This document shows, piece by piece, positions 1 through 42,902 of a DNA stretch of 64,000 bases. The position numbers and the translations under genes are program-made. The DNA is from an uncultured Nitrospiraceae bacterium. Lineage in GTDB: Bacteria; Nitrospirota; Nitrospiria; Nitrospirales; Nitrospiraceae. Numbering within the stretch: the stretch's first letter is position 1; each line of letters starts with the position of its first letter. The stretch covers positions 1,824,001 to 1,888,000 of the forward strand of contig CAWJWJ010000002.1 of NCBI GenBank assembly GCA_963846575.1, given 5' to 3'. Under the pieces are notes generated by a model. The model did no database searches and was not told where the DNA came from. It saw nothing but the letters and a program-made list of their open reading frames with translations.

Positions 1-182
1 GCGGGAACAGCCGCCCCGAGATTGCCGCTAGCATGCGTTACAGCGATGTGGTACCCTCCCCTTCATACCGTACGCGGTAGATCAATTTCATGAAGTAGCA
101 CTCGAAGTATTGGGACGGTCACCATCCTCTCATATCCGATGCCGCTGTTGAACTTCGTGCATGGGGCAATAAGGGCTTGCGC

Positions 183-25486: not shown

Positions 25487-25503
25487 TTGCAAGACCTGAC
25501 CCC
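25479..25503 (+). repeat. RAYT-associated motif, copy 2 (right inverted repeat)
   Basis: ATGTGTGATTGCAAGACCTGACCCC; contains the transposase stop codon. Confidence 0.95.
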
Positions 25504-26232
25504 ACGAAAAATGACCCCACGAAAAAGTTTACCGTCGATCGTCTGCTTTCCAAGCTGGGCATCACCAGCCGCAGTACGGCGCAGGAGTGGATTCGCGCCG
25601 GCCGGGTCCGCGTCAATCAACGTGTCGTGCGCCTTCCCGGCACGTGGGTCTCATGGCCGGGCGACAGCCTCTCGCTCGACGGGCAGCCCGTGCAGGAGGC
25701 CAGCCGACGCTTCATCCTCTTTCACAAACCCAAGGGCCTGGTCACCACGCACGAGGACGAGAAGGGCCGCAGCACCATTTTTGACGCGCTGCCGGAGGAC
25801 ATGCGGTCACTGCATGCCGTCGGGCGGCTGGACCAGGCGACCAGCGGGCTGCTTTTACTGACCAACGACTCGATGCTCTCGAGCCACCTCACAGACCCGG
25901 CGCAACAGTTCCCCCGCCTCTATCTCGTAACTGTGCGCGGCAATGTGACGGAGAGTGCCCGAGAAGCGGCCATCACCGGCCTGCTGGATCAAGGGGAGCG
26001 CCTTCACTGTCAAAACGTGACCATCCAGAAACGCTCCGGACGCGAGTCGCATTTGGAGGTAACGCTGACCGAAGGCAAGAACCGGGAGATCAGGCGACTG
26101 TTCAAGGCGCTTGGACACGAGGTGACGAGGTTGCGGCGCATCCAGTACGGGCCGTTCCTCCTCGGCGACCTGCCACCGGGAGGCTGGCGGGAACTCACAG
26201 TCGAGGAAGCGAGAAACGCACTCCAATCGTGA
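25483..26232 (+). CDS. rRNA pseudouridine synthase (RsuA/RluB family)
   Basis: S4 domain VDRLLSKLGITSR, FHKPKG, VGRLDQATSGLLLLTND, LTEGKNREIRR. Confidence 0.92.
   Translation: MIARPDPTKNDPTKKFTVDRLLSKLGITSRSTAQEWIRAGRVRVNQRVVRLPGTWVSWPGDSLSLDGQPVQEASRRFILFHKPKGLVTTHEDEKGRSTIFDALPEDMRSLHAVGRLDQATSGLLLLTNDSMLSSHLTDPAQQFPRLYLVTVRGNVTESAREAAITGLLDQGERLHCQNVTIQKRSGRESHLEVTLTEGKNREIRRLFKALGHEVTRLRRIQYGPFLLGDLPPGGWRELTVEEARNALQS
25497..25526 (+). repeat. Exact 15-bp tandem duplication
   Basis: TGACCCCACGAAAAA x2 (25497-25511, 25512-25526). Confidence 0.95.
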
Positions 26233-26454
26233 GAAGCGGGCGGCGCACTCCAATCAACTCACCGGCACTATCGGGTGGAAGTGACGTCGTAGAGTCGTGG
26301 GAGGACCAACCCCCTGCCCCGCCCATCTGCTCTCCCAAAACCTCCAGAAGAGCAACCCACACACTGTGCCCGCATCGGAGGCAGGCCGGCGGCGGGACCG
26401 GCGGCCTGCTGCAGGGAACCGATCCACGTCCCGGGTCGGGCCTCACCGGTCCGG

Positions 26455-26868
26455 TTAGTATCCCCGCCCGCTGCTCCCGCCACGCCCCATGCGGTCGAAC
26501 GGCAGCGCTTCGTAACGCTTCTTCAGGTCGGGATGTTCCGCGAGGTACCCCTTCACCGCCGCGTCATCGGCAAAGACTTCCTTGCTGCGCCCCCGATACT
26601 CCTCGACCGTCAGATCGTACTTCGACAACAGGCCGGTCAATTTCTGATTGATATCCTTCCCCATTTCAGCCATCTGCTCGGCCGAAGGCGGACGCCCTTC
26701 TCCATAGCCGCTGCCGCCCTGAAAATAATTCGTCATCATCTCGCCGATTTCGATGCGGGCGTTCACGAATTTCTCCAGCTCGGCCGGTTCGGCAGCCAGC
26801 GCAGGCCCTGCATACAACATCAATCCCAATGAAATGCCGATGATCACCCGTGCAGAATTCATCACCAT
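26455..26868 (-). CDS. Secreted hypothetical protein
   Basis: Signal peptide (PALA-AEP); GAGAGG RBS. Confidence 0.75.
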   Translation of the reverse strand: MVMNSARVIIGISLGLMLYAGPALAAEPAELEKFVNARIEIGEMMTNYFQGGSGYGEGRPPSAEQMAEMGKDINQKLTGLLSKYDLTVEEYRGRSKEVFADDAAVKGYLAEHPDLKKRYEALPFDRMGRGGSSGRGY

Positions 26869-27135
26869 ACGGTCCTCTCAAAATGTAATAGAAGTGGCGG
26901 TCGTCGATCCGTCGTCATCTTACCATCTCAACCGGATGAGGTGCACGGCCCGTCAGGACGCGTGGCCGGATCCGGGCCGGCAACCGGTGAACGGAGCCGG
27001 CCAGACGGGAACCGGGGCCGTCCATTCTTTGTGAAAGACGTGCTAAGCTGGGCCGCCTTTGCCGGGCAACTTAGTCAGCGCGCCCACAGGGCCGGAACGT
27101 CGTTCAGACAGTAACGGGAGAAAGGAGAGTCCAGC

Positions 27136-27831
27136 ATGCCAGGACGCCAGAAGGAGCGGCATCGCACGGAACGCCTCGGCTGGTTACGCGCGGCAGTATT
27201 GGGTGCCAACGACGGGATCATTTCCACCGCCAGCCTGCTGCTCGGTGTTGCGGCGGCGCACGGAACCCGCAGCGCGATCATCATAGCCGGCGCCGCCGGT
27301 CTGGTGGCCGGCGCGATGTCCATGGCCGCCGGCGAATACGTCTCCCTCCGCTCGCAGGCCGATACCGAAGAGGCCGAACTCGAGCTCGAACGGCAGGAAC
27401 TCCAGGACGATGAGGCGGGCGAACACAAAGAATTGACGACGATCTACGTCCGTCGCGGGCTGGACCCGTCACTCGCGAAACAGGTCGCGCATCAACTGAT
27501 GGCGCATGATGCATTAGGTGCGCATGCTCGAGACGAATTGGGAATCTCCGACACCCTCAGCGCACGTCCGGTTCAAGCCGCGTTCGCCTCGGCCGGCGCC
27601 TTTTCCGTCGGAGCGGCCCTGCCGCTGCTGACCGCCACGGTGGTGCCTCAGCCGATGTTCATTCCGTTGGTGTCCGGCATGTCGCTGCTCTTTCTTGCGC
27701 TGCTGGGTGGAGTGGCGGCTTCGGTGGGCGGGGCCAATGTCTTCTCGGGAGCCGCCCGCGTCACCTTCTGGGGCGCCCTGGCCATGGCGGCGACGGCGGG
27801 AGTGGGAGCGCTGTTCGGAACAAGTCTCTGA
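27136..27831 (+). CDS. VIT1/CCC1 family Fe/Mn transporter
   Basis: WLRAAVLGANDGIIS, AGAMSMAAGEYVS. Confidence 0.95.
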   Translation: MPGRQKERHRTERLGWLRAAVLGANDGIISTASLLLGVAAAHGTRSAIIIAGAAGLVAGAMSMAAGEYVSLRSQADTEEAELELERQELQDDEAGEHKELTTIYVRRGLDPSLAKQVAHQLMAHDALGAHARDELGISDTLSARPVQAAFASAGAFSVGAALPLLTATVVPQPMFIPLVSGMSLLFLALLGGVAASVGGANVFSGAARVTFWGALAMAATAGVGALFGTSL

Positions 27832-27896
27832 ACAGGTCGACGACCGGTCTGCATGGATGTGACCGTCCACGGTACTGCCGGACGGGGCGCAGAGCT

Positions 27897-28079
27897 TTAG
27901 CTCCCGGCCTTGGCCTCCGACAACTTGCGGAGGAGCGCCGTCATTTCATCCAGCTTGAGCGTCCCGACAGCCAGGTCGGTTTCCAACCGCTCGATCATAT
28001 CCAAACAAGTCTTCACCGTCTCGACCAGCTGGGCCTGCGTCATCGTCGGGAGCTTGTGTTCGATGTCGTGCCTGTTCAT
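27897..28079 (-). CDS. Small coiled-coil hypothetical protein
   Basis: GGAGG RBS; MNRHDIEHKLPTM... Confidence 0.6.
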   Translation of the reverse strand: MNRHDIEHKLPTMTQAQLVETVKTCLDMIERLETDLAVGTLKLDEMTALLRKLSEAKAGS

Positions 28080-28411
28080 AGGTCGTAGTCCTCCATGGTG
28101 TGGATCTCGCCCAATGTGACTCATCCGGCCGAGGTTTTCAACAGTGGCCTGCGCAGTCATTGAGAGCCAGTGCCGGATGACGCGACGTCGCCCCCGGCCG
28201 GCTTCCTTCATAGGCTCGGAGCGTGCAGCTTCGCCTCGGGGTCTCGCTGGCTTTGACCTCGGTCAAAAACGGGAAGACGCCACATCGAGGACAGCGGAAG
28301 AATGGAAGGCACGAGAGGGATGACGGAGAGCGCGGGAACGCTCGGGCAGTCTCTCACCGCCCACGGGCTTTCCTGAACGCCCTCATTCCTCGAGCAGTAT
28401 CCGGCCCCGCC

Positions 28412-28648
28412 TTACACCCGGCTGTGATCGTGCAGAGAGAACCAGGCATAGGGCGTCAGGTAGTAACAGAGGAGGAACAACGTCAGGCCCAACACCCCGC
28501 CGACCAGGCCCTTGATCACGACCCCGGCGAATGGCAGCAGGAACAACATCAGGTGCATCACATGTGCGAGCGCCTTGTGCTCCTGATAAAAGGCCTGGCG
28601 GATCTCACTCGTGAATGTGCCGGTAACCGAGAGATTGGAAAGACTCAT
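28412..28648 (-). CDS. Small two-TM membrane protein
   Basis: GAGGTG RBS; two hydrophobic helices. Confidence 0.65.
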   Translation of the reverse strand: MSLSNLSVTGTFTSEIRQAFYQEHKALAHVMHLMLFLLPFAGVVIKGLVGGVLGLTLFLLCYYLTPYAWFSLHDHSRV

Positions 28649-28814
28649 CGCCGCACCTCCTCTTCGTCCATGGACCAGGGAGAGGGGATCAGTGCGCAGC
28701 GCCGGCGGGAAGGATCAGGTCAGGTCGTTGGAGCTGCGTCACGACACCACGCTACGCGCAATGGGGCACGGCGTCAAGTGCAGTGGAGCCACTCGTGCGT
28801 ACTCGCCTGCTCGC

Positions 28815-29735
28815 CTAGCGTTCCCGGCCGGGTCGGGGGAGTTGCTGCAGAAAGTCGCCGAGCACGGCGCCAAACTTGTCCGGGTCTTCCGCCATGATGA
28901 AATGTCCCGTGTCGAACTCTACGAGCTGAGCGCCGGGAATTTGCGCCTGGATGCCCTTCGCGATGGTCGGCGTCGCCACCCCGTCTTTGGCGCCCACCAT
29001 GATCAGGGTCGGCGCGGTGATGCCGGTGAGCTGACCATGCACATTAAAACGGGACATCGACGTCAGCGCCTCTCTGATCACCGTGGCGTTCCAGGTGCGA
29101 ATCCGGTCAAGCAACGGCTGGTAGAGCCTGGACGGCGCATCCTGCGGGAAACTTTCCACGATCATCTTCTTGGACACGCGACGATAATCCCGCGGCGCGC
29201 CGATCGTGGGCACGTCCTCGTCGAGAATCATGGGCCCATCGGTGGTTGACACCAGCACCAATGCCCGCACCCGCTCGGGGTGATCGAGCGCGAGGCGTTG
29301 AAGAATCATCCCGCCCATGGATACTCCCACCCAAACCGCCCGGTCGATCTGCAGGGCATCCGCTAGTTTGATCAAGTCCTGTGAAAACTGCTCGATGGTG
29401 AACCCGCCGGGCGGTTTGTCGGAGTCGCCATACCCACGGAGGTCCACGGCGATGCCGCGGAAGTCCGGCGTATAGGCGGCGACATATTTCGGAAAGATGT
29501 TGCTGGTCGTGACGACGCCATGCACGAAGATGACGGGATCGCCGGTGCCTGCCTCCAAGAGGCTCACATGCAGTCCGTCGAGATCGACGACGTGGCGCTG
29601 AAACAACTCACCGGGCGGCATGACATCAGCCAGTTTGGCCGGCCGGGCGGCGGTTCCCTGAGTAGGATAGGAAGAACCGGCACAGCCGGTCACGCCCATC
29701 AAGGCGACCACGAGGATCAACGTCACTGCCCGCAT
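28815..29735 (-). CDS. Alpha/beta hydrolase, probable lipoprotein
   Basis: Lipobox VTGC, FVHG, DLRGYG, GVSMGG, GHF. Confidence 0.9.
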   Translation of the reverse strand: MRAVTLILVVALMGVTGCAGSSYPTQGTAARPAKLADVMPPGELFQRHVVDLDGLHVSLLEAGTGDPVIFVHGVVTTSNIFPKYVAAYTPDFRGIAVDLRGYGDSDKPPGGFTIEQFSQDLIKLADALQIDRAVWVGVSMGGMILQRLALDHPERVRALVLVSTTDGPMILDEDVPTIGAPRDYRRVSKKMIVESFPQDAPSRLYQPLLDRIRTWNATVIREALTSMSRFNVHGQLTGITAPTLIMVGAKDGVATPTIAKGIQAQIPGAQLVEFDTGHFIMAEDPDKFGAVLGDFLQQLPRPGRER

Positions 29736-29910
29736 ACAGCTCCCCTTTCCAAATGTTAGGTGAACGATTCAGCCTAAGGCCTGCGCAGGAGATATTCAAT
29801 CCTATGATGTTCGACAGGGATCGTGATCGGCGAAGTGGGCGTGCGATGATCATCGACCGGCACGGTCCACGATTCGAAATGCTAGGTTTTATCCGGCCAT
29901 AGCTGGTAGG

Positions 29911-30990
29911 ATGCGTCATGCACGTGTTTCTTCGGTGAACTCGAATGAAAGGGAGCCTGTCTTGAACATCACTAAATTGATTGCCGCTTGCATCGTGTTG
30001 TCTCTGGTCGGAATGCCAACCATCTCCCTGGCGAAGGCGCGAGGCGGATCGGGAGGAGGATTCTCCAGCGGGTCGCGTAGTGGAAACTCCGGAAGCAGCA
30101 TGGGCAGCCGCGGCTCACGCACCCATCAGGACAACGGCGCGAAGCCGATCGAACAGTCCACCACGGCCAGGCCGGCCACGGCTCCCCCGCCATCCACCGC
30201 GACCAGCCCGGCTGGTCAATCGAGCCCCGCCGCGCAGCCGTCATGGCTGCAACGCAATCCCCTGCTGGCCGGCATCGCAGGCGGCCTCGCCGGAACCTGG
30301 CTCGGCCATATGATCTTCGGAGCGACCGACAGCAGCGCCAGGACCACCGAGAACGGTGGAGCAGAGGGCGAACAGACAGCCGGGGCATCCGGTCCTAACT
30401 GGACGCTGATCCTGCTCATGCTGATGGGAGCCGGAGGACTGTATTATTACTTCAAGGGTCGCCGCACTCCCGCTCCTGATTTTTCAGGCCTCAGTCGGAG
30501 CACGGCCGCAAGTGGCTCTCTGCTGGCGGATTCCGCCACCGCTCCGAGCCTCCGGACGGCCACGATCGACAGCGAAATCACCAGGTCCGACAAAAGCGCG
30601 TTTCAGCAATCGCTGATCGACATTCAAACAGCCTGGGGCAAACAAGACCTGACCGGACTGCGGCGGCTCGTCACGCCGGAGATGCTGGAGTATTTCAGCA
30701 CCGGCTTGGCCGAACAGGCCAGCCAGGACCTCGTCAATCACGTGGAAGATGTGATCCTTCAGCAGGCGGATGTCCGGGAATCCTGGGTGGAAAATACGAC
30801 GCAATACGCGACGGTGAACCTGACCTGGACCGCCCGCGACTACAGCGTCTCCCTGAGCAAACAACCGGGAGAGCCCGGCTATCTCGTCGAAGGCAACAAA
30901 GAAACGCCGACCGAAACGACGGAAGTCTGGACCTTCATGCGATTCCAGCATGGGAAGTGGTTGCTCTCCGCGATCCAACAGGTCGCATAG
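29911..30990 (+). CDS. Tim44-domain protein (true start possibly downstream)
   Basis: SMGSRGSRT, Gly-rich TM, C-terminal EVWTF..WLLSAIQQ. Confidence 0.88.
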   Translation: MRHARVSSVNSNEREPVLNITKLIAACIVLSLVGMPTISLAKARGGSGGGFSSGSRSGNSGSSMGSRGSRTHQDNGAKPIEQSTTARPATAPPPSTATSPAGQSSPAAQPSWLQRNPLLAGIAGGLAGTWLGHMIFGATDSSARTTENGGAEGEQTAGASGPNWTLILLMLMGAGGLYYYFKGRRTPAPDFSGLSRSTAASGSLLADSATAPSLRTATIDSEITRSDKSAFQQSLIDIQTAWGKQDLTGLRRLVTPEMLEYFSTGLAEQASQDLVNHVEDVILQQADVRESWVENTTQYATVNLTWTARDYSVSLSKQPGEPGYLVEGNKETPTETTEVWTFMRFQHGKWLLSAIQQVA

Positions 30991-31036
30991 GGTTGCGCGC
31001 GTCCGCTGACGACGCGACAAGCGAGCCGTAGGACAT

Positions 31037-31086
31037 GGGGCAGCGGTAGTCTCGATGGTCGAGACGGCCGCTGCCCCGTTTTTTTT
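31037..31086 (+). terminator. Rho-independent terminator
   Basis: GGGGCAGCGG-ta-GTCTCGA-tgg-TCGAGAC-gg-CCGCTGCCCC followed by a T8 tract. Confidence 0.8.
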
Positions 31087-31228
31087 AGTGTCACGCTGAT
31101 CGCCCCGGAGGAACAGCCGTCACCGCACCCGCCGCATAGATCTGGGCGATAGACCGGAGGCTCAAGGGCCGGCCGCCCCCGCAGGGCAGCGGCATGAATG
31201 GCCGGGCAGGAGCGATGAGGCGGCCGGT

Positions 31229-31402
31229 CTAGTCGAGCGGGCTGGCCTCGAAGTGGATGAGGATGTCGTCTTCGATGGTGTAGCTGATCTCCAAAGGATT
31301 GCAGCAGACCTCGCAATCTTCGACGTAGGTCGAATGGACGGAGGGATCCAGGACCATGGAGATCAATTCGCCGCAGGAGGGGCAATTAAAGGAATGTTCC
31401 AC
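31229..31402 (-). CDS. CPXCG-motif cysteine-rich protein
   Basis: CPSCGE..LDPS..YVEDCEVCCNP. Confidence 0.85.
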   Translation of the reverse strand: MEHSFNCPSCGELISMVLDPSVHSTYVEDCEVCCNPLEISYTIEDDILIHFEASPLD

Positions 31403-32027: not shown

Positions 32028-32276
32028 GGTGTCCTCCTTGTTCTCTCCGCCGTGACCGGCACTCGAACGGGCCGGATCGGCCGGCGCATCATCAGCATCC
32101 TCTGCTGCGACAAGTCCCACTCTAGGACAATGAGATGAGGAAACGATTAGTACAACATGAGAAACACTTCATCTGATGAATCGGCAACACACCGCAGAGC
32201 CCCCGGCGGCAATGCGTCTGCGTCTGGCCGCCCGGTCAGGCCTCTGCCGAGACGCGGCCTCGTGGCCGACACCGGT

Positions 32277-32489
32277 TCACGTGACCGCATCGACAATCAC
32301 GGGCTCCTGCTGTCTTTCCGCATGACGTTCGAGCACCCGCACACCCCAGAGCGCGGAGAGCACCAGCACCGTCCAGAGCAGCAACAGGGCCAGCGCTTTA
32401 CGTTCCTCGGTTCGCAAGGCGGCCAGGTCGGTGCCGGACCAGGCCGATGGCTGCGCAAGATACCTTCGGATCCTGCGTCGATCGTTCAT
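32277..32489 (-). CDS. Small single-TM hypothetical protein
   Basis: AAGGAGG RBS; one hydrophobic helix. Confidence 0.6.
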   Translation of the reverse strand: MNDRRRIRRYLAQPSAWSGTDLAALRTEERKALALLLLWTVLVLSALWGVRVLERHAERQQEPVIVDAVT

Positions 32490-32563
32490 GGTTCCCTCCT
32501 TCCGTCAATCTCCCGTCATGTTGCACCCGCACATCAACGAGACGCAAGCATCAGTAGCCGGCG

Positions 32564-32588
32564 ATGTTTGATTGCAAGACCTGACCCC
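32564..32588 (+). repeat. RAYT-associated motif, copy 3 (24/25 match)
   Basis: ATGTTTGATTGCAAGACCTGACCCC. Confidence 0.92.
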
Positions 32589-32663
32589 TATGACGGACCC
32601 TGGTGGGCTCCTAGGGATATCATTAGTGGAAATGCCTGGCATGCCGGAAGTATCATCGGCCGT

Positions 32664-33926
32664 ATGCCCTCAGGAACGAAGACACAAGTCTCCGTAGGCA
32701 CTTATTTTGCCCGCGCTCGTGCCAATACGGATGCGCTGTTTCGCCTGCTCCGACCCGACGCGCTCTATGAGCGGCCCGTGCCGGAACGCCACCGGCTCAT
32801 TTTTTACCTGGGCCATCTGGAGACGTTTGACTGGAACCAGATCTGTCGCGGTGAATGCGCCGTGCCGTCCTTCCACCCGGACTTCGATCGCCTGTTTGCC
32901 TTCGGGATTGACCCTGAACCGGGCCAGGTCTTGACCGACAAGCCGTCCGACTGGCCGGCCGTAGAGGACGTGCGCCAGTACAACGAACGTGTGCGGCAGC
33001 TGGTGGACAGCAGGATCGACGAGGTGCCGGAGCAGATCCTCCGGATCGCCATCGAGCACCGGCTGATGCATGCCGAAACCCTCGCCTATCTGTTCCATGA
33101 TCTGCCGCCCTCCAGCAAAATTCTAGCGCCCGGCGACCGGCCGCGCACCGGTCCTTCTCCGGCACAGGTCATGATCGCAATCCCGGAAGGCAGAGCGACG
33201 CTGGGCCAGACTCGAAACAACGGATTGAACGGGTATGCGGAGGAACAGAACTCCTCCGCCTCGTTCGGTTGGGACAATGAATTCGATGCGCTGGACGTAC
33301 ACGTGCCCTCGTTCGCCATCAGCAAATACAAAGTGACGAACGGGCAATACCTGGAATTTGTGCGGGCCGGTGCAGAGCCTCCCCGCTTCTGGACGATGCA
33401 TGACGGCCGGTGGTTCTGGCGAACCATGTCAGGGGCATTACCGCTCCCGCTCAACTGGCCGGTCTATGTCACCTATCGCCAGGCTCAGGCCTATGCCCGA
33501 TGGGCGGGACAGTCCCTGCCGACCGAACCCCAGTTCCATCGCGCCGCCTATGGCACGCCCTCCGGTGAAGAGCGGGCCTACCCATGGGGCGACGGCCCCC
33601 CGGATCAGCGTGCGGGCAACTTTAACTTTCGCCGGTGGGACCCCATTCCTGTGACGGCGAATCCCATGGGCGACAGCGCCTTCGGAGTTTCTCAACTGGT
33701 GGGCAACGGGTGGGAATGGACCTCGACGCTGTTTCATCCGTTCCCCGGCTTCCAGCCCTTCCCGTCCTACGCGGGGTATTCGGCTCCCTTCTTCGACGGC
33801 GACCACTATGTCCTCAAAGGCGCATCCTCCCGGACCGCAGCCTGTTTCCTGCGGCGGTCATTTCGCAACTGGTTTCGATCGGACTTTCCCTATGTCTATG
33901 CCGGATTCCGATGTGTTGAGAACTGA
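32664..33926 (+). CDS. egtB: Ergothioneine sulfoxide synthase (DinB-like + FGE-sulfatase domains)
   Basis: RHRLIFYLGH, HRLMHAE (HxxxHxE iron motif), FGWDNE, GNGWEWT, FRNWF; adjacent to egtD. Confidence 0.85.
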   Translation: MPSGTKTQVSVGTYFARARANTDALFRLLRPDALYERPVPERHRLIFYLGHLETFDWNQICRGECAVPSFHPDFDRLFAFGIDPEPGQVLTDKPSDWPAVEDVRQYNERVRQLVDSRIDEVPEQILRIAIEHRLMHAETLAYLFHDLPPSSKILAPGDRPRTGPSPAQVMIAIPEGRATLGQTRNNGLNGYAEEQNSSASFGWDNEFDALDVHVPSFAISKYKVTNGQYLEFVRAGAEPPRFWTMHDGRWFWRTMSGALPLPLNWPVYVTYRQAQAYARWAGQSLPTEPQFHRAAYGTPSGEERAYPWGDGPPDQRAGNFNFRRWDPIPVTANPMGDSAFGVSQLVGNGWEWTSTLFHPFPGFQPFPSYAGYSAPFFDGDHYVLKGASSRTAACFLRRSFRNWFRSDFPYVYAGFRCVEN

Positions 33927-34932
33927 CCCGCTTTCTTCGCAGGCGCTGCAACCGCATGCATGGCTGGATTTCGCGCATGCCGTGCGCGAGGGTCTGAGCA
34001 AGCCGGGCCAGCGGGAACTCCCTTCCATCTATCTCTACGACGACCTGGGCACGGTGCTGTTCGAAGCCATCACCCTGTTGCCCGAATACGGCTTGACGCG
34101 TGCGGAGGACCGTCTCCTGAGACGGCACGCCTCGTCGATCATCGACCGCCTGCCGACGCCCCTGGTGGTGGCGGAACTGGGCAGCGGCAACGGACGGAAA
34201 ACGCGCCGGCTGCTGGAGAGCATGGCCCGACGCGAAGCCGTCCGCTATTTTCCGATCGACGTCTCGCCATCGGCCCTCGTGAAATGCAAACAGGAACTTT
34301 TCGGGTTGGGCTCCATCAGCATCGTGGGGTTGGAGAATTCCTATCTGGACGGACTCCGCGAGGTCGCGGTCCGCCGCCATCCGGAGGAAACCCTGCTGGT
34401 ATTGTTCCTGGGCAGCGCGGTCGGCAATTTCGAACGGGCCGCAGCCGAAGACTTCCTGCGGGAGATCCGGGAATGTTTACTCCCCGGTGACGCGCTCCTC
34501 ATCGGCACCGATCTCGAAAAATCCCTTGCGGACATGGTGCTGGCGTACGACGATCCGACCGGCGTCACCGCCGCCTTCAACTACAACCTGCTCGCCCGCA
34601 TCAACCGTGAACTCGGCGGGAACTTCGATCTGAGGCACTTCGCGCACGAAGCCCGGTATAACACCGTCGCCCGCCGGATCGAGATGCACCTGCGGTCGAC
34701 GCGGACCCAGACGGTGTCGATTCGAGCAGCGGACTTCGCCTGCAGGTTGGACGAAGGCGAAACGATCTGGACCGAAGCTTGTCACAAGTTCCGGGCCGAC
34801 GAGATTCCAGGCCTGGCGCGGCGAACGGGATTTGGCTGCGACGCGCAATGGATCGACGGTGAATGGGCCTTCGCCGAGAATCTCTGGACCGCCGTCGCCG
34901 ATGCGCCCATCACGTCCAGCCCGAGCCCATGA
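33913..34932 (+). CDS. egtD: L-histidine N-alpha-methyltransferase (start uncertain, 33892-33913)
   Basis: LPSIYLYD, LPEYGLTRAE, ELGSGNGRKT, AYDDPTGVTAAFN, RIEMHL. Confidence 0.92.
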   Translation: MLRTDPLSSQALQPHAWLDFAHAVREGLSKPGQRELPSIYLYDDLGTVLFEAITLLPEYGLTRAEDRLLRRHASSIIDRLPTPLVVAELGSGNGRKTRRLLESMARREAVRYFPIDVSPSALVKCKQELFGLGSISIVGLENSYLDGLREVAVRRHPEETLLVLFLGSAVGNFERAAAEDFLREIRECLLPGDALLIGTDLEKSLADMVLAYDDPTGVTAAFNYNLLARINRELGGNFDLRHFAHEARYNTVARRIEMHLRSTRTQTVSIRAADFACRLDEGETIWTEACHKFRADEIPGLARRTGFGCDAQWIDGEWAFAENLWTAVADAPITSSPSP

Positions 34933-35672
34933 GCCGCCTGATCTCCTTTCAGAACGTCTCTCTCCGTTTCGACAACAAAGACATCCTTCACAATCTGAAC
35001 TTCGACGTGGAAGCCGGAGAAACGCTGGTGCTCCTGGGGCGGAGCGGGTCCGGAAAAACCACCGCCTTGAAAATGGTCAATGCCCTGCTCCGACCGACGG
35101 CCGGTGAGGTCTTCGTGGAGGGCAAGCGGACGACGGACTGGGACCTGATCAGGCTCAGGCGCCGGATCGGCTACGTGATCCAGGATGCCGGCCTGTTCCC
35201 GCATTTCACCATAGCGGCCAATGTCGGACTGGTGCCCCGCCTGGAAGGGTGGAAACCGGGCGTGATAGAAGAACGTGTGCAGGGTCTGCTCCAACAAGTC
35301 GGCCTTCCCCCGGATCAGTTCGCCACCCGTTATCCCCGGCAGCTGTCCGGCGGGCAACGTCAGCGGGTCGGCGTCGCACGGGCCTTGGCTGCCGATCCCC
35401 CCATCATGCTGCTGGACGAACCGTTCGGCGCGCTCGATCCGGTGACCCGCGTCGACATGCAGCGCCAGTTCCTCGAATTGCGCCAGGGTCTCGCCAAGAC
35501 GACCCTGTTCGTCACCCACGATGTCCGGGAAGCCCTGTTGCTCGGCACCAGGGTCGGTCTGCTCCACAACGGCCGGTTGGTGTTTCTCGGGACTCCTGCG
35601 GAGTTCCTCGAGGCGCAGGGTGAAGAAGTCCAGGCGTTCCTCACCTGTCTCGAGCCGGCGAGGAAGTCCTGA
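34929..35672 (+). CDS. Quaternary-amine ABC transporter ATP-binding subunit (OpuCA/EgtV-like)
   Basis: GRSGSGKT, LSGGQRQR, LLDEPFGALD; ATGA overlap with egtD. Confidence 0.92.
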   Translation: MSRLISFQNVSLRFDNKDILHNLNFDVEAGETLVLLGRSGSGKTTALKMVNALLRPTAGEVFVEGKRTTDWDLIRLRRRIGYVIQDAGLFPHFTIAANVGLVPRLEGWKPGVIEERVQGLLQQVGLPPDQFATRYPRQLSGGQRQRVGVARALAADPPIMLLDEPFGALDPVTRVDMQRQFLELRQGLAKTTLFVTHDVREALLLGTRVGLLHNGRLVFLGTPAEFLEAQGEEVQAFLTCLEPARKS

Positions 35673-36289
35673 TGACGTCCGGATTGGCGAGTGAAATTTT
35701 TGAACTGAGCATCGAACACCTGTACCTGGTCCTGGTCTCCATCGCCATTGCCGCGGCAATCGCCATCCCCGTCGGCGTGCTGCTCACGCGGCATCAGCCG
35801 TTGCAGGGATGGGTCCTGGGATTTGCGAATGTCATGCAGACCGTGCCGAGCCTGGCGCTCTTCGGATTTCTGATCCCCATTCCGTTCATCGGCGGGATCG
35901 GAAAACACACGGCCATGATCGCCCTCGTGCTCTACGCGCTCCTGCCGATTCTGCGAAATACCCTCACGGGCATTCTGGGGATCGATCGAGGCGTACGCGA
36001 GTCGGCGGTCGCCATGGGCATGACCGAACGGCAGCTGCTGTTGGAGGTGGAACTTCCACTGGCCACCCGCACGATTCTGGCCGGCCTGCGGATCGCCACC
36101 GTGACGACCATCGGCACTGCCACCATCGCCGCCGCGATCGGCGCGGGCGGGCTCGGCGTCTTTATATTCCGGGGCCTGGCTTCCATTGACCCCACGCTGC
36201 TGTTGGCCGGTGCGGTCCCCGCCGCACTGATCGCCTTGCTAGCCGATCGAGGACTTGAATGGCTCGAAAATACATTATCACCGGTCTGA
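35672..36289 (+). CDS. Quaternary-amine ABC transporter permease
   Basis: QTVPSLAL, YALLPILRNT, ESAVAMGM. Confidence 0.92.
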   Translation: MTSGLASEIFELSIEHLYLVLVSIAIAAAIAIPVGVLLTRHQPLQGWVLGFANVMQTVPSLALFGFLIPIPFIGGIGKHTAMIALVLYALLPILRNTLTGILGIDRGVRESAVAMGMTERQLLLEVELPLATRTILAGLRIATVTTIGTATIAAAIGAGGLGVFIFRGLASIDPTLLLAGAVPAALIALLADRGLEWLENTLSPV

Positions 36290-37146
36290 TCATCGGACTC
36301 TGGATCACCTGGGCGGCAGGGTGCGACAGGGAACGCCCGATCGTGGTGGGATCCAAGAACTTTACCGAGCAGGTCATCCTGGGCGAGATCGTCGCTCAAC
36401 ATCTCGAACACCGGCTGACCCGCAAGGTGGATCGGAAGTTGAACCTGGGCGGGACGCTGTTGGTCCACCAGGCGCTCTTGAACGGAGACGTGGACCTCTA
36501 CCCCGAATACACCGGCACCGCGCTGTTGACCATATTGAAAGTGCCGTCCTCCGCCGATCCCCAAGCGGGAATGGCGGTGGTGCGCTCGGAATATCAGGTG
36601 CGTTTCAAAGTCGAGTGGATGGAACCGCTGGGCTTCAACAACGCCTTTGCCATGGTGATCCGCGGAGACGATGCCCGTTCCAAAAAGATCGATACGCTGA
36701 GCGACGCGGCGCGTGCGGCCACGCCCTGGGCCCTGGGCGTGGGGTACGAATTCCAGCAGCGGGCCGACGGGCTGGCCGGCCTCTTGAAGACCTATAACCT
36801 GCCTGTCGAGGGTTCCTCCAAAACGATGGATCTCGGGTTGCTCTATCGGGCGCTCGAACAGAAGCAGGTCACAATGATCGCCGCGAGCGCCACCGACGGC
36901 CCGCTGTCGGTCCTCGATGTGACGGTGCTCAAGGATGACAAGAAATACTTCCCCCCCTACCAGGCCGCACTCGCCGTGCGCGCGCAGACGCTGAAACGGG
37001 AACCTCGATTGCGGCAGGCGCTGAACGAACTCAGCGGAAAATTCTCCGATCAGATGATGCGCAAGCTGAACCAGCAGGTGGACGGCGAACATCGCGCCAT
37101 CCGCGACGTGGCCGAGCAGTTTTTACGGGATAACAAGCTGAATTAA
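36259..37146 (+). CDS. Quaternary-amine ABC transporter substrate-binding protein (OsmF/EgtU-like)
   Basis: GSKNFTEQ, YPEYTGT, DDKKYFPPY. Confidence 0.92.
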   Translation: MARKYIITGLIIGLWITWAAGCDRERPIVVGSKNFTEQVILGEIVAQHLEHRLTRKVDRKLNLGGTLLVHQALLNGDVDLYPEYTGTALLTILKVPSSADPQAGMAVVRSEYQVRFKVEWMEPLGFNNAFAMVIRGDDARSKKIDTLSDAARAATPWALGVGYEFQQRADGLAGLLKTYNLPVEGSSKTMDLGLLYRALEQKQVTMIAASATDGPLSVLDVTVLKDDKKYFPPYQAALAVRAQTLKREPRLRQALNELSGKFSDQMMRKLNQQVDGEHRAIRDVAEQFLRDNKLN

Positions 37147-37189
37147 GCTCGCACCGTTGACGGGTCCGATGGCCGCGCCCGGGTCCCGG

Positions 37190-37300
37190 CTATTCGTCAT
37201 ACTGCTTCGCATTGCCACGGGACTTCTCGACCGGATACTTGGTCTCGTTCTTCTTCAGCTTCGCGCGCACGGCATGGTTCACATCCGGGCCCAGATCGTG
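37190..37300 (-). pseudogene. 3' remnant of a MazG-like pyrophosphohydrolase, paralogous to 40397-40741
   Basis: HDLGPDVNHAVRAKLKKNETKYPVEKSRGNAKQYDE vs HDLGLDVNDAVRAKLKKNEAKYPVEKCRGNAKKYDE. Confidence 0.85.
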
Positions 37301-37464
37301 CAATCCATCCGGCTGACTCCTTCTCTTTGGGATCGTGAAACCGGCGCGGATAAATGCAAGTTGAAGTGGTTCATGGGCAAGAGAGGATGGAAACATTCCG
37401 GGATTGAGGACGTAGCGAAGGTCGGCAGGTTCGTGGGGAGTTTTGACTCGGCGCTCCAGATGCC

Positions 37465-37676
37465 TTATGCGCCGGTCATGAGTTCGGCTTCGAGGGGGTG
37501 GTCTTTCTTGAATCGGCTGACGTTCAGGACGCTAAGCCCAAGACATGCCCCTGTCCGTCCACGCGTTCCATGACCGCCTCGTAAGCCGTGGGCCGCATGA
37601 ACCCGGGCGCATCGCTGAACTGCACTTCCAGAAACGCTCCTTCGGGATCAAACCAGACTTTTACTTTGTCGGCCAT
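37465..37676 (-). pseudogene. DUF2283-like antitoxin, one frameshift
   Basis: MADKVKVWFDPEGAFLEVQFSD...MERVDGQGHVLG/SVLNVSRF...; one base missing near 37535. Confidence 0.7.
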
Positions 37677-37806
37677 ATCGTGTCTCCTGCCTTGAGTTGG
37701 TCAGTCAAATAGGCCGTCACCACAAACCCGTCATGTGGAGGATACTTGACCACGACGCACAGCCATCCCACCAACCAGCGTCTGGGCATAGAACTCATAA
37801 AAGATT
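37661..37806 (-). pseudogene. 3' half of a toxin-like partner gene of the DUF2283 protein, truncated next to motif copy 4
   Basis: IFYEFYAQTLVGG/WLCVVVKY..DGFVVTAYLTD..KAGDTIWPTK; overlaps the antitoxin start; no 5' half. Confidence 0.65.
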
Positions 37807-37813
37807 TCGGATG

Positions 37814-37838
37814 ATGTGAGATTGCAAGACCTGACCCC
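37814..37838 (+). repeat. RAYT-associated motif, copy 4 (24/25 match)
   Basis: ATGTGAGATTGCAAGACCTGACCCC. Confidence 0.92.
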
Positions 37839-37895
37839 CACCACCACGCAAGGGCGAGGGCCGGCGGGACGACGACTGCCACCCGCAGAGCACAC

Positions 37896-39725
37896 TCAGT
37901 GCGTCCGGCCAGCCTTCCTCAGCAGACGCGCCAGGTTCACGCCGCTCGAAATCACCCCGATGTGGCTGAAGGCCTGGGGATAGTTGCCCAGAAACGCCCC
38001 CGTGGAAGGATCGATCTCCTCCGGCAACAGCCCAAGGTGGCCGGCTCTTGCGCAGAGGGAGTCATACAACTCCGTGGCCTCAGCCAACCGGCCCTGCTTG
38101 GCCAGATTATCCACCAGCCAGAAACTGCACAGAAGAAACGCACCCTCATGACCGGCGATTCCGTCAGGCGATTCTTCCGGCAGATAACGGTACAGCAACC
38201 CCTGCCCGGCTCCCAGTCGCTCGGACACCGCGCGGGTCGTGGCCACCATCTTAGGATGGTCCGCGGCCACCACCCGTCGAAGCGGCAGCGTCAGAAGACT
38301 CGCATCCAGGCCCCCGCCTCCCAGATGTTCCGTCAGCGACTGGATTTTCGAATCCCAGGCCTCGACGAGGATCGCCTCCTGGATCTCCCGTGCTGTCCGT
38401 TTCCAGGTCTCCACTGGTCCTGGCAAATTGAAGCGGTCGGCCATCCGGGCCGCACGGTCCACCGCCACCTGGCACATGGCAGCCGAATAGGTAAATGGCC
38501 GTCCACTGGTGCGAACCTCCCAGATGCCCTGGTCCGGCTTGCGCCAGGCCTCCCCGGCGGCGTCGATCAGCTTCACGAGTCGATCCCACCGCTCGATGGA
38601 CGTCCCGCCGTGATGGGCCGCCCATTGATAGGCACAGTCGAGAATTTCGCCGTACACATCGTGCTGTTGCTGCGCCGCCGCCGCATTACCCCAGCGCACG
38701 GGCCTGGACCGACGGTAGCCTTCCAGTTCGCGGTCAAGCCGCTCCATCGAGGGCATTCCCCGGTCGAGGTCATACATGACGCTGGGTTTGCCGTCGCGCT
38801 CCACGGCATCCAGCACCCAGGCGAGAAAACCCGCGGCCTCGTGCGAGAGGCCGATGCGATGGAGCGCATAGACCGAAAACGCCGCATCCCGCACCCACGC
38901 ATACCGATAATCCCAATTGCGCTCCCCCCCGATGAGTTCCGGCAGCGATGACGTCGGCGCCGCGACGATCGCGCCGTTTTCGAAGTGATCCAGGAGTTTG
39001 ATGGTGATGGCGGAGCGGCGAACCAGGGCCTCCTGGGGCCCATCGTACGTCAGACATTCCAGCCATCGCTCCCAGACCGCCACCGTATCCCTGCGGAGCG
39101 CCGCCCCGTCGAAACGGTCCACATGCGCGGACCCTTGACGCCAACAGAGGAGCAGCGAGCACGATTGCCCGGCCGTGATCGTCACCAAGGTGCGCAGCCC
39201 GGTCAGCGGGATGGTGGAGGAGAGGTGCAGGTTCAGACCGGGCTGGGCATGACAGCGGATGCGGATTCCTCCGTCACGCGGCTCCGCCTCAGCTCCTCCA
39301 CGGGGTTCGATATGGATCGTCAGGTCGACACGCCCTTCGACGACCGTGACAGTCCGAAGCAGTTCACGACGCGTCGCCGGAACATCCTGAGAGAGGTCGG
39401 CCCCGGCCACCAACGGACAGAAATCCGTGACGCGCACCAGACCGGTCGAAGTCCGCATCTCGGTCACCAACAGGGCCGTATCCGGCTCATAGAATTGGCG
39501 GGACTCCCGCACCCTGTCAGGCGCAATGGTGAAATGGCCCCCGCGCGTGGCATCGAGCAGACTGCAGAACAAGGGGGGAGAATCGAAACGGGGCAGACAG
39601 AGCCATACCAGACGTCCGTCACGCCCGATGAGCGCCGCGGTCGCGCCGTCGCCCACGAGGCCATGATCTTCAATCGGCAAATAGCCGTCGATCCGGTGAA
39701 AGTCCTTCCACCCCGGTTCCGTCAT
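37896..39725 (-). CDS. Glycoside hydrolase family 15 (glucoamylase/trehalase-like)
   Basis: AAPTSSLPE..GGERNWDYRYAWVRD, PDQGIWEVR, GNYPQAFSH. Confidence 0.93.
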   Translation of the reverse strand: MTEPGWKDFHRIDGYLPIEDHGLVGDGATAALIGRDGRLVWLCLPRFDSPPLFCSLLDATRGGHFTIAPDRVRESRQFYEPDTALLVTEMRTSTGLVRVTDFCPLVAGADLSQDVPATRRELLRTVTVVEGRVDLTIHIEPRGGAEAEPRDGGIRIRCHAQPGLNLHLSSTIPLTGLRTLVTITAGQSCSLLLCWRQGSAHVDRFDGAALRRDTVAVWERWLECLTYDGPQEALVRRSAITIKLLDHFENGAIVAAPTSSLPELIGGERNWDYRYAWVRDAAFSVYALHRIGLSHEAAGFLAWVLDAVERDGKPSVMYDLDRGMPSMERLDRELEGYRRSRPVRWGNAAAAQQQHDVYGEILDCAYQWAAHHGGTSIERWDRLVKLIDAAGEAWRKPDQGIWEVRTSGRPFTYSAAMCQVAVDRAARMADRFNLPGPVETWKRTAREIQEAILVEAWDSKIQSLTEHLGGGGLDASLLTLPLRRVVAADHPKMVATTRAVSERLGAGQGLLYRYLPEESPDGIAGHEGAFLLCSFWLVDNLAKQGRLAEATELYDSLCARAGHLGLLPEEIDPSTGAFLGNYPQAFSHIGVISSGVNLARLLRKAGRTH

Positions 39726-40041
39726 ACCGCCTCCCTTAAGAGATCGATGTCGATAGTCCGGCCGGCCCGGGCCAGAGGCACACAACAGAACACGCCTCTC
39801 GCCATCCTGCGCGCAGGGACGCCCTCCCGGCCCCCCTTCCAACAGCCGTTCACAAGATCACCCCACCGGGACATCCAACAGAGACATCTCACATCCCAGA
39901 TCCGGACGCAGGCCGCAGCGAACCTGATCTTTCCCTGTTGACCGGGAGTCATCCCCTCGCCCTCGCCCCGCACGGGCCGACCCGAGAAACGGGACCTCCT
40001 GTGTCTCTATACGACCGGGCCGCCCATTTCGTCTCAACGGT

Positions 40042-40137
40042 TCAACGGACCTTCTTCCGCCTGCCCTTCAGCAGCACGATGACACCCACGATGCCGATGA
40101 TCAGGGCGAGCCCGCCGATGATGGCCAAGGGTTCCAT
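40042..40137 (-). CDS. Small membrane peptide (31 aa)
   Basis: MEPLAIIGGLALIIGIVGVIVLLKGRRKKVR; single TM with basic tail; purine-rich RBS. Confidence 0.5.
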   Translation of the reverse strand: MEPLAIIGGLALIIGIVGVIVLLKGRRKKVR

Positions 40138-40396
40138 AATCCTTCGTTGTCTCCTGTCCGGCTCTGGTGAGAGGCGATCGCCGCCGTCATCCGGTAACGT
40201 GCGCAAGGGCTCGATGGTGCCTGCTTGCTTGCTCGTCATTACAGACCATGCCGGATCAACCTGGTCGAATGCAAACGCCTCCTGATTGAGAAACCGCGGA
40301 GTTCGCAGCCCGACGCCCTGGAGATAACCAGGCAGCCGATGGCCCGTTCAATTCCAGGAAAGCCCGCCCCGCGATGGCCGCTTCGCATGGATCTGT

Positions 40397-40741
40397 TCAT
40401 TCGTCATACTTTTTGGCATTCCCGCGGCACTTCTCGACCGGATACTTGGCCTCGTTCTTCTTCAGCTTCGCGCGCACGGCGTCGTTCACGTCCAGGCCCA
40501 GGTCGTGGCAGAGGTAGGAGAGGAGGATCACGACATCGGCGATTTCATCCTCCACCCGCTCCCGTGCCGGGCCGTTCAGGAGACTCGCCACCTCGTCGTG
40601 TGTTTTCCATTGGAAGATCTCCAGCAGTTCGCTCGCCTCGACCGTAACGGCGGCGGCCAGCTCCTTGGGCTTGTGAAACTGCTCCCAGTCACGCTTCCGC
40701 CGGAATTCCAATACCGCAGCCATTACGTCGTCGTTCAACAT
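40397..40741 (-). CDS. MazG-like nucleotide pyrophosphohydrolase (DCTPP1/RS21-C6-like)
   Basis: RDWEQFHKPKELA, EASELLEIFQW, EDEIADV, KNEAKYP. Confidence 0.9.
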   Translation of the reverse strand: MLNDDVMAAVLEFRRKRDWEQFHKPKELAAAVTVEASELLEIFQWKTHDEVASLLNGPARERVEDEIADVVILLSYLCHDLGLDVNDAVRAKLKKNEAKYPVEKCRGNAKKYDE

Positions 40742-41120
40742 CTCGGTTCTCTCCTGATGATTCTCCTGATATGGGGGCGGGACCGGTGGTCGCTGCATCG
40801 CATCAGGTACGGGGTCCCCCGCCACCCTAGGATCGTGAATCGGCTCCGGGGAATGCAAGCCGAATCGCCCAGGCCATGACCCACGCCCGACCCGACCCCC
40901 AGTTGAAACAGCCGGCATGTCTGTGGCCATCACCGTACCGGCGATGTGAACGAGCAAAAGCGGTCGATCCGCTCCGCCCTGCTGCCGCGCAGGGCAGATC
41001 CAGGCCCGATAGGGCTGCGGGAGCGATGATTGAATTAGCTTGCGGAGTGGCGTAGAGGTTGATGCAGCCACGACTCTTCACCCGTCTCTTGTCCCGGCGG
41101 GGCTTGCGGGAGGTCCGCTC

Positions 41121-41671
41121 ATGAAGTAGGCCTTGCGTTCTTGTTGGTTCTCCTGTTGGTTCCCAGCTCACCCCTCTCCGCACAGACCCCTTGTGCGGAT
41201 TGTTTCGACGCCGCCGAGGCGGAATCGAGGAAATGCTTCGGCAATGCCATTAGCGCAGATGACAAGAGCGGCTGCCTGGAAACCCGGCAAACGCGGATGA
41301 AGAATTGCAACGAGGATCTCTGCAAAGAGGTCAGGGAGGAGCACACCACGGCAACGGAACCGCAACCGGTGCCGGCCCGGCCCGGCTTCGGGGCCTACGT
41401 CCCGACGGAAGGCGAATGGCTCGCGCTAGTCATGAGGACCGGCCTCCGGCGGGAAGCCACGCCAGACCGGCCCTACTCGCTCGACATCGTGCTGGCCGAT
41501 CCGCAGACCATCGAGATCGTCGTCCATCATGCTCCCACGATGAAGCGGGACCAGGTGAACAAAACCATTGAGGCCGCGCGGGAGGCGATCAGGAGCCAGG
41601 CCAGGAGCCATGGGTGGGACAAGTGGGTGAAGATTCGAGAGAAGGTTGAAGTGTCGCCGGGAAAGAAATGA
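41121..41671 (+). CDS. Secreted Cys-containing hypothetical protein (start region has a probable 1-bp deletion)
   Basis: GGAGG RBS and ATG at 41121; the signal peptide continues in the 41141 frame; six Cys in the N-domain. Confidence 0.65.
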
Positions 41672-41805
41672 GAGCATGTAACGCGACCTAAGGCGGTCGC
41701 AGCCGGGTGAAGAAACAGGCGAGGCCGGTCTCCACGAGAGAGCATGGACAATAGGCGGAGCAGAGTGATGCGAAGGCTTCCTCGGTGCTGGGCGAGAGGG
41801 AATAG

Positions 41806-42375
41806 TCAGAGGCGGGCGACGTCATCGGAAATCGGCTGAGCCGGGCAGGTCACGAGCTGAGGGCGGAAGCGTTGCCGGAGCGAGGCGACCACCGCGCCGT
41901 CCGCAGCCGCAGGCAGGACGCACTCGGCGAAGGAATGGCCCGAGGTGATCGCGAGCCGCCCGCAGACAAGGAGGAGAACGACGGTGGCGATCCAGTTGGG
42001 CCAGGCATCCAGCTCCCAACCATACGGGCTGTAATAAAAGGTGTCGCTCACAGGCCAGAAATACTGGATGGGCCAATCGACCCCGCTCCCCAGCCAGTCA
42101 CACAGGAGATGCAGGTGAAACGCGGCAAGGCCCAGCCACCAGACCCTCGGTCGATCCTTCGCCCGGAAGGCACAGAGTCCGGCAATGAGGAGCGCAGCGG
42201 CAAGGCCATGGGTCAGGACATGGTGCCAGCGGCCATAGGCATCGAGACCGGCGAGCAGCGAGAGGCCGTCGAGGTCCGCAGCCACCCCGGACCAGGCCAC
42301 CAACCGGCGATCGCGCCGCGCCGCCAAGCGGTGGCCCACCACCCAGGACAGCATGAGATGTGTGGGGATATGCAT
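41806..42375 (-). CDS. Membrane-bound metal-dependent hydrolase (YdjM-like)
   Basis: THL, ADLD, HHVLTH, HLLCD, FWP. Confidence 0.85.
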   Translation of the reverse strand: MHIPTHLMLSWVVGHRLAARRDRRLVAWSGVAADLDGLSLLAGLDAYGRWHHVLTHGLAAALLIAGLCAFRAKDRPRVWWLGLAAFHLHLLCDWLGSGVDWPIQYFWPVSDTFYYSPYGWELDAWPNWIATVVLLLVCGRLAITSGHSFAECVLPAAADGAVVASLRQRFRPQLVTCPAQPISDDVARL

Positions 42376-42679
42376 AGGGCCGACGCTCCGGCGAAGACGT
42401 CAGAGAGAAGTATAGCAGCCGTGGGGAAGGGGTGAGCGTCGATGGGTTTCGCAACAATCGGCAGGTGGCCACCTCAATCGGTCTGTTGCAGCCATGCGGC
42501 AACGGAACAGGGCCGGCTGATCGGCGGTGCGATCGGAGACCGACTTCTTCGAGGTGGCAGCGACAGGCAATGTAGCGTCAACCGGTCGACGCGGTTGATG
42601 GGGCACGCGCTGGACGACCGTTCTAGGGCGAGATTCTCCAATGGCGCAGTGACAACGGTGCAGGGCTGCAACCGTTTCT

Positions 42680-42831
42680 TAATGTCGAGACGGCGGGAAG
42701 CAGCCTGACCGAGATCGTCGCAAGCAGGACCGGAAGAGGTCGTGGTTGCGCATGAAGCGCTGAGGCGCCTTCGACCGTTCAGTAGTGTTCCCGGCTGGCT
42801 TCCAATACTCGAGTTCTATCGGCTTCGCCAT
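42680..42831 (-). pseudogene. Decayed 5' end of a second RAYT-like transposase
   Basis: MAKPIELEYWKPAGNTTERSKAPQ aligns ungapped to MARPLRLEFPGAVYHVTSRGNARQ (9/24 identical); starts 17 nt inside motif copy 5. Confidence 0.55.
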
Positions 42832-42848
42832 CGCCTGATTCAACGGTA

Positions 42849-42873
42849 CTGTAGGATTGCAAGACCTGACCCT
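42849..42873 (+). repeat. RAYT-associated motif, copy 5 (21/25 match)
   Basis: CTGTAGGATTGCAAGACCTGACCCT. Confidence 0.9.
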
Positions 42874-42902
42874 AACCTTCCTCTTGACCCTAACCTTCCT
42901 CT
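42867..42902 (+). repeat. Exact 18-bp tandem duplication
   Basis: TGACCCTAACCTTCCTCT x2 (42867-42884, 42885-42902). Confidence 0.95.

Follow-up and report, generated by a model that had tools for sequence, protein, structure and literature searches.

The TIRYTs are HUH transposases whose inverted repeats carry the consensus GGGGWSAS, as given in the text of PMC3733652, and Quentin et al. (2018) tentatively equate them with TnpA-Y1 subclass 2.1, which Table 1 of that paper (PMC6006769) gives as the largest TnpA-Y1 group besides IS200, in about 15% of species. Y1 enzymes are described as cutting at C|T or C|A (PMC8266576), and a scheme of nicking, copying, second cutting and resealing was proposed earlier for the amplification of BIMEs by TnpA-REP (PMC3333891). 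Here we analyse a TIRYT unit and its dispersed repeats in a 64,000-nucleotide stretch of an uncultured Nitrospiraceae genome (contig CAWJWJ010000002.1, positions 1,824,001 to 1,888,000; hereafter the window), in which short exact tandem duplications begin at the tips of the terminal inverted repeats (TIRs). The scar is found again at this repeat in many bacteria and probably marks the points at which the enzyme nicks, copies and reseals DNA.

The T of TGACCC within the repeat was taken as position 0, with positive numbers running outward from the repeat. The start of a duplication is the first base of the duplicated unit, in the leftmost possible register, and its end is the start plus the unit length. 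The unit, its repeats and their duplications lie in the window as follows.

24600-24625, minus strand: left (5') TIR of the TIRYT unit, with the T of TGACCC at 24607 and no duplication outside
24650-25486, plus strand: gene of the TIRYT / TnpA-Y1 subclass 2.1 (group 1 RAYT) transposase, 278 amino acids, with HUH, FQ, Y119 and a C-terminal helix-turn-helix (HTH)
25479-25504, plus strand: right (3') TIR, overlapping the transposase stop codon and providing an in-frame GTG start for the next gene
25497-25526, plus strand: exact 15-bp tandem duplication, TGACCCCACGAAAAA twice, start 0, end +15, register unambiguous
32565-32595, plus strand: solo TIR with T at 32582 and a weak TGAC echo at +9 (TGACCCCTA-TGAC)
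37815-37847, plus strand: solo TIR with T at 37832 and CAC three times directly after it, closing a ~0.8-kb insert that is missing from the relative G036
42850-42873, plus strand: solo TIR with T at 42867, bordering a stretch of 49% GC
42867-42902, plus strand: exact 18-bp tandem duplication, TGACCCTAACCTTCCTCT twice, starting at the T with 1 nt of slack (T or the next base), end +18

Both duplications had been reported in the initial annotation as beginning at the T of TGACCC, and both are found there. The echo that it noted at a third copy (T at 32582) is present too, and taken alone it is weak. Assembly was checked against Logan contigs from four runs of one study, possibly the source sample (assembled contigs rather than raw reads). 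Two contigs from two runs, X1 (264 bp, 25330-25593) and X2 (151 bp, 25463-25613), span the 15-bp duplication with no differences, which confirms it as real and no assembly artefact; the duplication at 42867 is uncovered by any listed contig piece of the four runs. At the solo TIR at 37832, a contig with a depth of 2.4 shows differences at +10, +15 and +28.

By its sequence features, the motif is the TIR of a TIRYT / TnpA-Y1 subclass 2.1 HUH transposase gene, and the element is an ordinary TIRtron. The repeats on either side of the gene are 100% complementary over 26 nt. They take the form TG(T/C)nnGATTGCAAGACCTGACCC(C/T), of which the motif first described is the outer part, and their other strand holds GGGGTCAG, which matches GGGGWSAS; the gene lies between terminal inverted repeats with this consensus, as in TIRYTs / TIRtrons. 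The protein matches Pfam Y1_Tnp (4e-14) and carries the core motifs of the subclass (NH[YF]H, W[EQ]/FQ, Y..LNP and SS) in the form of N-H60-Y-H62 (HUH), FQ, Y119 within YVVLNP, and WSSY. The YVVLNP differs at one variable position from the Y[IV]HLNP / YIELNP printed in Table 1 of PMC6006769. The NCBIfam model REP_Tyr_transpos scores 75.2 bits, under its cut-off of 80. The C-terminal HTH tail of the subclass is found at residues 244-275 as matches to HTH_38, HTH_30 and HTH_23 (E 7e-5 to 9e-4, under the curated cut-offs). The protein had no sequence match in the PDB, and a single-sequence structural model was poor (pLDDT 46.5) and was left unused. Assignment to the REP / REPtrons of groups 2 and 3 was rejected: the GTAG tag of their stem-loop repeats is absent from the repeat, and the 28-nt repeat has no stable fold (z-scores of six stretches 0.1 to 1.6).

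The genome holds a single gene of the TIRYT type (one tblastn match) and 13 repeats, arranged as three clusters and one single copy; a motif-core match at 52259 was rejected as a TIR, the remainder of the repeat being missing. At the copy at 2041613 (G000:C2), about 48 bp are retained that resemble the transposase gene at its 3' end. The two further clusters (G000:C2:1115101-1127397 and 2041613-2044140) are without a transposase gene, and a glycoside hydrolase 15 / trehalase-like gene occurs in both of them and in the cluster of the window. Among 39 genomes of the genus, 20 have the motif; a full-length close homologue is encoded in 11 of the 12 with at least four copies, the twelfth holding fragments, and the 13 genomes without a protein match have 0-3 copies.

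The frequency of the scar was determined from repeats collected from the genus relatives and from scans of species genomes (at least 134 stretches, in many phyla) and metagenomes (at least 131 stretches), the census being taken among the matches listed. We excluded identical contexts, sites with N or close to a contig end, and two viral hits that were not repeats, which left 362 sites (227 + 135); at these, exact tandem duplications with units of at least 6 bp were counted. The two viral motif matches lack the upstream TG, and no relatives of the transposase protein were found in viral contigs. An exact duplication stands at 68 of the 362 TIR sites (47 of 227 and 21 of 135). At the non-TIR TGACCC sites of this genome a duplication occurs nearby in 58 of 2238 cases, and only one of these 2238 sites has a T-start duplication (6-bp unit). 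Loci shifted by +120, +200 or -200 gave 2-6 duplications out of 118-224, and a shift of -120 yielded 12 of 218 and 14 of 123, a higher count that probably reflects the partner repeat often lying there. Within this genome, 6 of the 13 TIR copies have an exact duplication of at least 6 bp, and start 0 fits 4 of the 13. A second TGACC, beginning at about +8 to +20, is present at 42 of 227 sites, compared with 6 and 4 in equal windows further out, and similar scars are seen at variant repeats of more distant homologues (examples, uncounted). The bases outside the repeat are biased in the 227 sites (A 45% at +7, T ~40% at +8 to +10); the bias at +7 to +14 could reflect a preference for easily melted DNA.

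Most duplications (60 of 68) are TIR-proximal, starting at or before +8. Start 0 fits 29 of these 60, against 1 of 2238 in the control, so the T register is real; 15 of the 29 have zero slack, so this register is not driven by microhomology. No zero-slack event starts at -1 or +1. The other proximal starts fall at +4 to +8 (22), at +1/+2 (2) and upstream inside the TIR, at -5 to -19 (7). Zero-slack starts at +5/+6 lie at C|C (7) or C|T (1), and the upstream starts do not favour C|T (they lie at G|C, A|G, T|T, C|G, T|C and A|C). Irrespective of the start, 58 of the 60 proximal duplications have their outer end at +10 to +19, as against 5 of 45 in the control, and this end shows no base preference (A8 T8 G8 C4 in 28 events). 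The start-0 units measure 12-19 bp in 28 of 29 cases and none is shorter than 12 bp. Among the inner points the T is the most frequent, and of the two registers that of the outer end is the steadier. Some units were imperfect or compound, with additional bases at the junction.

These registers bear on what the initial annotation had proposed. The enrichment of same-register duplications that it predicted among motif copies is found, and the sharpness of the T register upholds its preference for a mechanistic scar over random slippage. Its description of a fixed start with variable length is not supported, since starts range from +8 to -19 (longer copies to -326) and the outer end stays within +10 to +19 in 58 of 60. 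One nick at GACC|TGACCC followed by copying of the flank, as it envisaged, would by itself leave the variable starts, the steady outer end and the 12-bp minimum unexplained.

The same outer limit appears in larger copies. In co-oriented TIR pairs within 1.5 kb, exact outward identity ends by +19 in 36 of 37, the remaining pair being a nested 14+15; similarity extends inward over 40-123 bp in eight non-array co-oriented pairs. In one relative, G428, seven solo TIRs carry 121-326 bp of the 5' end of the transposase gene, and identity with the parent TIR ends at +9 to +12 in six of the seven. Copied segments of 1.3 kb and 0.34 kb in the same genome each begin exactly at +16 of the preceding TIR, without microhomology. 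The general form is repeat-X, restart at s, repeat-X again, with s between +8 and -326. The G428 repeats form an array of co-oriented solo repeats about 0.3-1.2 kb apart (L448, G428:C21:46500-55500; L449), each preceded by a transposase 5'-end fragment and with small open reading frames between, giving an integron-like look. At L178 (G025:C6:333000-352999), pairs of outward-facing repeats spaced about 360 bp apart, MITE-like in form, occur again and again in an array, interspersed with other DNA. The three solo copies in the window (32582, 37832 and 42867) point away from the transposase gene, an outward polarity also seen in G001, G012, G027, G029 and G034.

Comparison with relatives dates some of these events and shows their effect on the gene that follows the unit.

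25483-26232, plus strand: S4 + pseudouridine synthase gene (Pfam), whose native N-terminus (~40 codons in G001) is swapped for TIR-coded residues

The native N-terminus is seen by alignment in G001 and G034. In this genome, G009 and G015 a GTG start inside the repeat is in frame with the pseudouridine synthase and the native N-terminus is gone. At this junction the unit occurs once in G009 and G015 (15 and 18 nt) and twice in this genome, the 15-bp duplication preserving the reading frame; that three genomes are in frame despite three junction lengths suggests selection for frame. The GTG start overlaps the transposase stop codon (window 25483-25560; L167, L170). In G012, a 14-bp start-0 duplication sits atop a 6-bp one common to G029, so events recur at one repeat. 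Across 37 pairs of orthologous junctions from seven junction sets (the pairs are not independent), the repeat itself is 92-97% identical, with identities of 57% at +6 to +11, 70% at +12 to +18, 73% at +19 to +25 and 82-89% from +26 on, and of 77-82% in the inner flank. One G029/G012 pair has a common inner flank and unrelated DNA outside TGACCC. The solo TIR at 32582 lies upstream of an egtB-like / egtD-like / ABC transporter block, and the matching stretch in G035 and G036 has no TIR corresponding to it; relatives' stretches at solo TIRs match only ~68-89%, too distant to read an empty-site junction. Cassette shuffling between TIRs in G001, G012, G027, G029 and G034 was rejected, as the gene order is identical.

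HUH enzymes make a tyrosine-linked 5' end and then join a 3'-OH to it. On the basis of the repeat, the gene, the enrichment, the outer end at +10 to +19 and the sharp inner register at the T, we tentatively read the duplications at the TIR tips as nick-copy-reseal scars of the TIRYT HUH transposase and a host polymerase, with two nicks, an account in which our confidence falls a little short of even. The enzyme would bind the repeat, probably via its HTH, and nick the strand reading GGGTCA-GGTCTTGCAAT about 5-13 nt outside the repeat, without sequence preference, remaining linked to the 5' end of the nicked strand. The 3'-OH of the flank would then prime inward copying, displacing the nicked strand, and copying would halt at the repeat edge (+4 to +8), or exactly at the T, or continue through the repeat. 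A stop at the T would follow from a second nick at GACC|TGACCC that breaks the template, and run-on copying would cover tens to hundreds of bases. The new 3'-OH would finally be joined to the tyrosine-linked end. Resealing in place would give a tandem duplication, and joining to another repeat would give one-ended copies, which would explain the solo repeats and the outward-pointing arrays.

We favour this two-nick reading, in which the junction is read on the bottom strand. If the enzyme-made end is the outer one and copying runs inward to variable stops, as in the one-ended transposition of IS91 (PMC13181058), all start classes would be covered, including those up to 326 bp away; the sharp stop at 0 then requires a reason, which a C|T nick in the template strand would provide. 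In its favour are the outer limit common to short and long copies, the lack of base preference there, the low identity of orthologous junctions at +6 to +11, the co-occurrence of at least four motif copies with a close homologue, the T-start scars in G426 and G428, where Ku was not found, and the scheme proposed earlier for TnpA-REP (PMC3333891). A broader proposal is unlikely, in our judgement: that TIRYTs recognise their repeat as a duplex and cut, in any sequence, at a measured distance beyond it, the tips serving as re-usable one-ended rolling-circle origins that rewrite the flank, swap gene starts and assemble captured DNA into integron-like arrays pointing outward on either side of the gene.

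Several points weigh against the two-nick reading. The cleavages in the scheme are ones that we infer, and the sharp stop at the T depends on the second, assumed nick. A junction X|s can be read on either strand, and the sequence alone gives no strand of the cut. A sequence-independent cut at a distance would be unusual for Y1 enzymes. No exact duplication is present at 294 of the 362 TIR sites, which are not independent (kin, and several per locus, as at L100 and L245), with one junction counted in both collections (L113/L337), and some of the G428 copies derive from one another. Finally, 51 of the 60 proximal starts (0 and +4 to +8) fall at or beside top-strand C|N steps, which suits a single top-strand nick, a bias due in part to the C run of the TIR itself.

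Such a single nick, at GACC|TGACCC or at a nearby C|C or C|T, is the alternative that survives best, and we consider it somewhat unlikely. Read on the top strand, the enzyme-made end would be s; the 3'-OH of the nick would be extended outward, and the enzyme would capture the new end once the polymerase was 12-19 nt clear of the repeat. A cut at C|T agrees with the chemistry described for TnpA-REP, in which the T of C|T receives whichever 3'-OH attacks it (PMC8266576), and the 15 zero-slack T starts, with none displaced by one base, are what it would give; the zero-slack starts at +5/+6, at C|C or C|T, fit loosely with the C run at +4 to +7. However, the 7 upstream starts and the 121-326 bp copies would require extra nick sites (G|C, A|G, T|T and others), and the shared outer end and the 12-bp minimum would require a separate rule.

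Less probable still, the enzyme could act mainly as a bound or covalently stuck roadblock, with host repair or a stalled fork trimming the DNA to 5-13 nt from the repeat and rejoining it, so that the outer end is a protection footprint rather than a cut. The broad spread of outer ends over +10 to +19, their lack of base preference, the imperfect or compound units with extra junction bases, and the presence of Ku in this genome would all suit this, yet trimming would hardly yield a sharp zero-slack T register. Ku was found in three of the five scar-carrying genomes tested, this one included, and was not found in G426 and G428, both with T-start duplications (genome completeness not given); Ku end joining seems not to be required for the scars. 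Scars also occur with the repeat on either replication strand among the 13 sites of this genome, which counts against this account and led us to reject a replication-strand bias.

A reciprocal product without TGACCC was sought, and 30 motifs with a base other than T after GACC were found in 401 genomes; 7 have lost 5 bp, for which slippage is also an explanation, and the others are substitutions or probable chance matches. Enzyme-independent slippage aided by the internal GACC-TGACC repeat, or target-site duplication from insertion or excision, is very improbable: the loss of one GACC(T) unit in those 7 of 30 motifs, and an IS4-type element that inserts into the repeat with a 10-bp target duplication, would favour it, but T-start duplications are nearly confined to TIRs, 15 of 29 of their junctions are without microhomology, a direct repeat of at least 5 bp was found in 0 of 39 outward-facing TIR pairs, and the IS4 duplication spans -5 to +4 rather than 0 to +12..19. 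A DDE insertion sequence or MITE with target duplication was rejected on the same 0 of 39 pairs.

The IS4-type element (a 411-amino-acid DDE_Tnp_1 + Nterm_IS4 open reading frame, ends CAATACTGTTAG) has a single, fixed insertion position within the TIRYT repeat, seen at L354/L358 (G002:C61:541-2070) and also at L356, L359 and L360 (G017) and L357 (G034). Its target duplication in G002 is AGACCTGACC, and 6 of 7 genus matches to its end motif lie at the fixed position, so that it appears to target TIRYT repeats. A shared flank, AATACTGTTAG, was considered as a donor-carried tail and rejected, being an IS4 end.

Elsewhere in the window, 37192-37300 and 40399-40507 are the two members of a 109-bp copy, 89% identical, of the 3' end of a MazG-like gene, which begins the ~0.8-kb insert ending in the solo repeat at 37832. 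The egtB-like, egtD-like and OpuAC-type ABC transporter block occupies 32157-37146; the transporter is inverted relative to egtD in G035, G036 and G009 and collinear in G015. Just outside the repeat at 42867, within the 49% GC stretch, a gene on the minus strand (43458-45332) encodes a 624-amino-acid AAA_15 ATPase whose best PADLOC match is AriA (1e-58), with matches also to Old and GajA, and which is possibly a defence gene.

Taken together, we regard the scar as real, enriched, family-wide and mechanistically informative, in an element class that is known and with a cut that we infer. Two precise positions follow from the scars: GACC|TGACCC and, on the other strand, a site 5-13 nt beyond the repeat. 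The scars also suggest that the TIRYT enzyme is active in vivo and that the solo repeats, the adjacent deletions and the replaced gene start are its products.

The closest described elements are the TIRYTs / TIRtrons (PMC3733652), tentatively equated with subclass 2.1 (PMC6006769) and corresponding to group 1 RAYTs (PMC5581495), with which this unit has in common a Y1 HUH gene with an HTH tail, inverted repeats with GGGGWSAS, a modest family of dispersed repeats and the lack of a REP hairpin. Figures and supplements aside, those descriptions mention no tip duplications, cut site or one-ended copies. The element class has been known since 2013, and no description of the tip scar was found in the literature searched, nor any account of a TIRYT cut site or activity, in a search whose coverage leaves aside figures, supplements and most subscription papers.

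For TnpA-REP and BIMEs, the text of PMC3333891 describes a nick, extension by a host polymerase, a second cut and resealing onto the tyrosine-linked end, which would add a tandem unit, and the cut is at C|T (PMC8266576), comparable to the start at C|T here. REPs, in contrast, are GTAG-tagged hairpins recognised single-stranded, and the unit added is a whole BIME (PMC3333891, PMC8266576), whereas the repeat here has no fold, units of 6-43 bp or longer are added, and at their outer end no sequence is preferred. An IS91-like rolling-circle element was also considered and rejected, the same repeat standing at both ends, the protein being Y1_Tnp and the outer junction lacking base preference. The IS91 transposase is a Y2 enzyme. 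According to PMC13181058, the IS91 family resembles the present element in having an HUH enzyme, no target duplication, and one fixed and one variable end able to carry adjacent DNA, and differs in that its oriIS and terIS ends are distinct and its target is a tetranucleotide. In the present element one and the same repeat stands at both ends, each of which has scars or one-ended copies, and the position of the fixed end floats over about 10 nt beyond the repeat. This analysis adds a controlled count of the duplications, the geometry of two registers, and a connection of the scar with one-ended copying and with the replacement of a gene start. If the reading holds, the ability of an HUH enzyme to cut beyond the site that it binds, and to join whatever 3' end is present, would be chemistry new to the family and might be of use as a tool.

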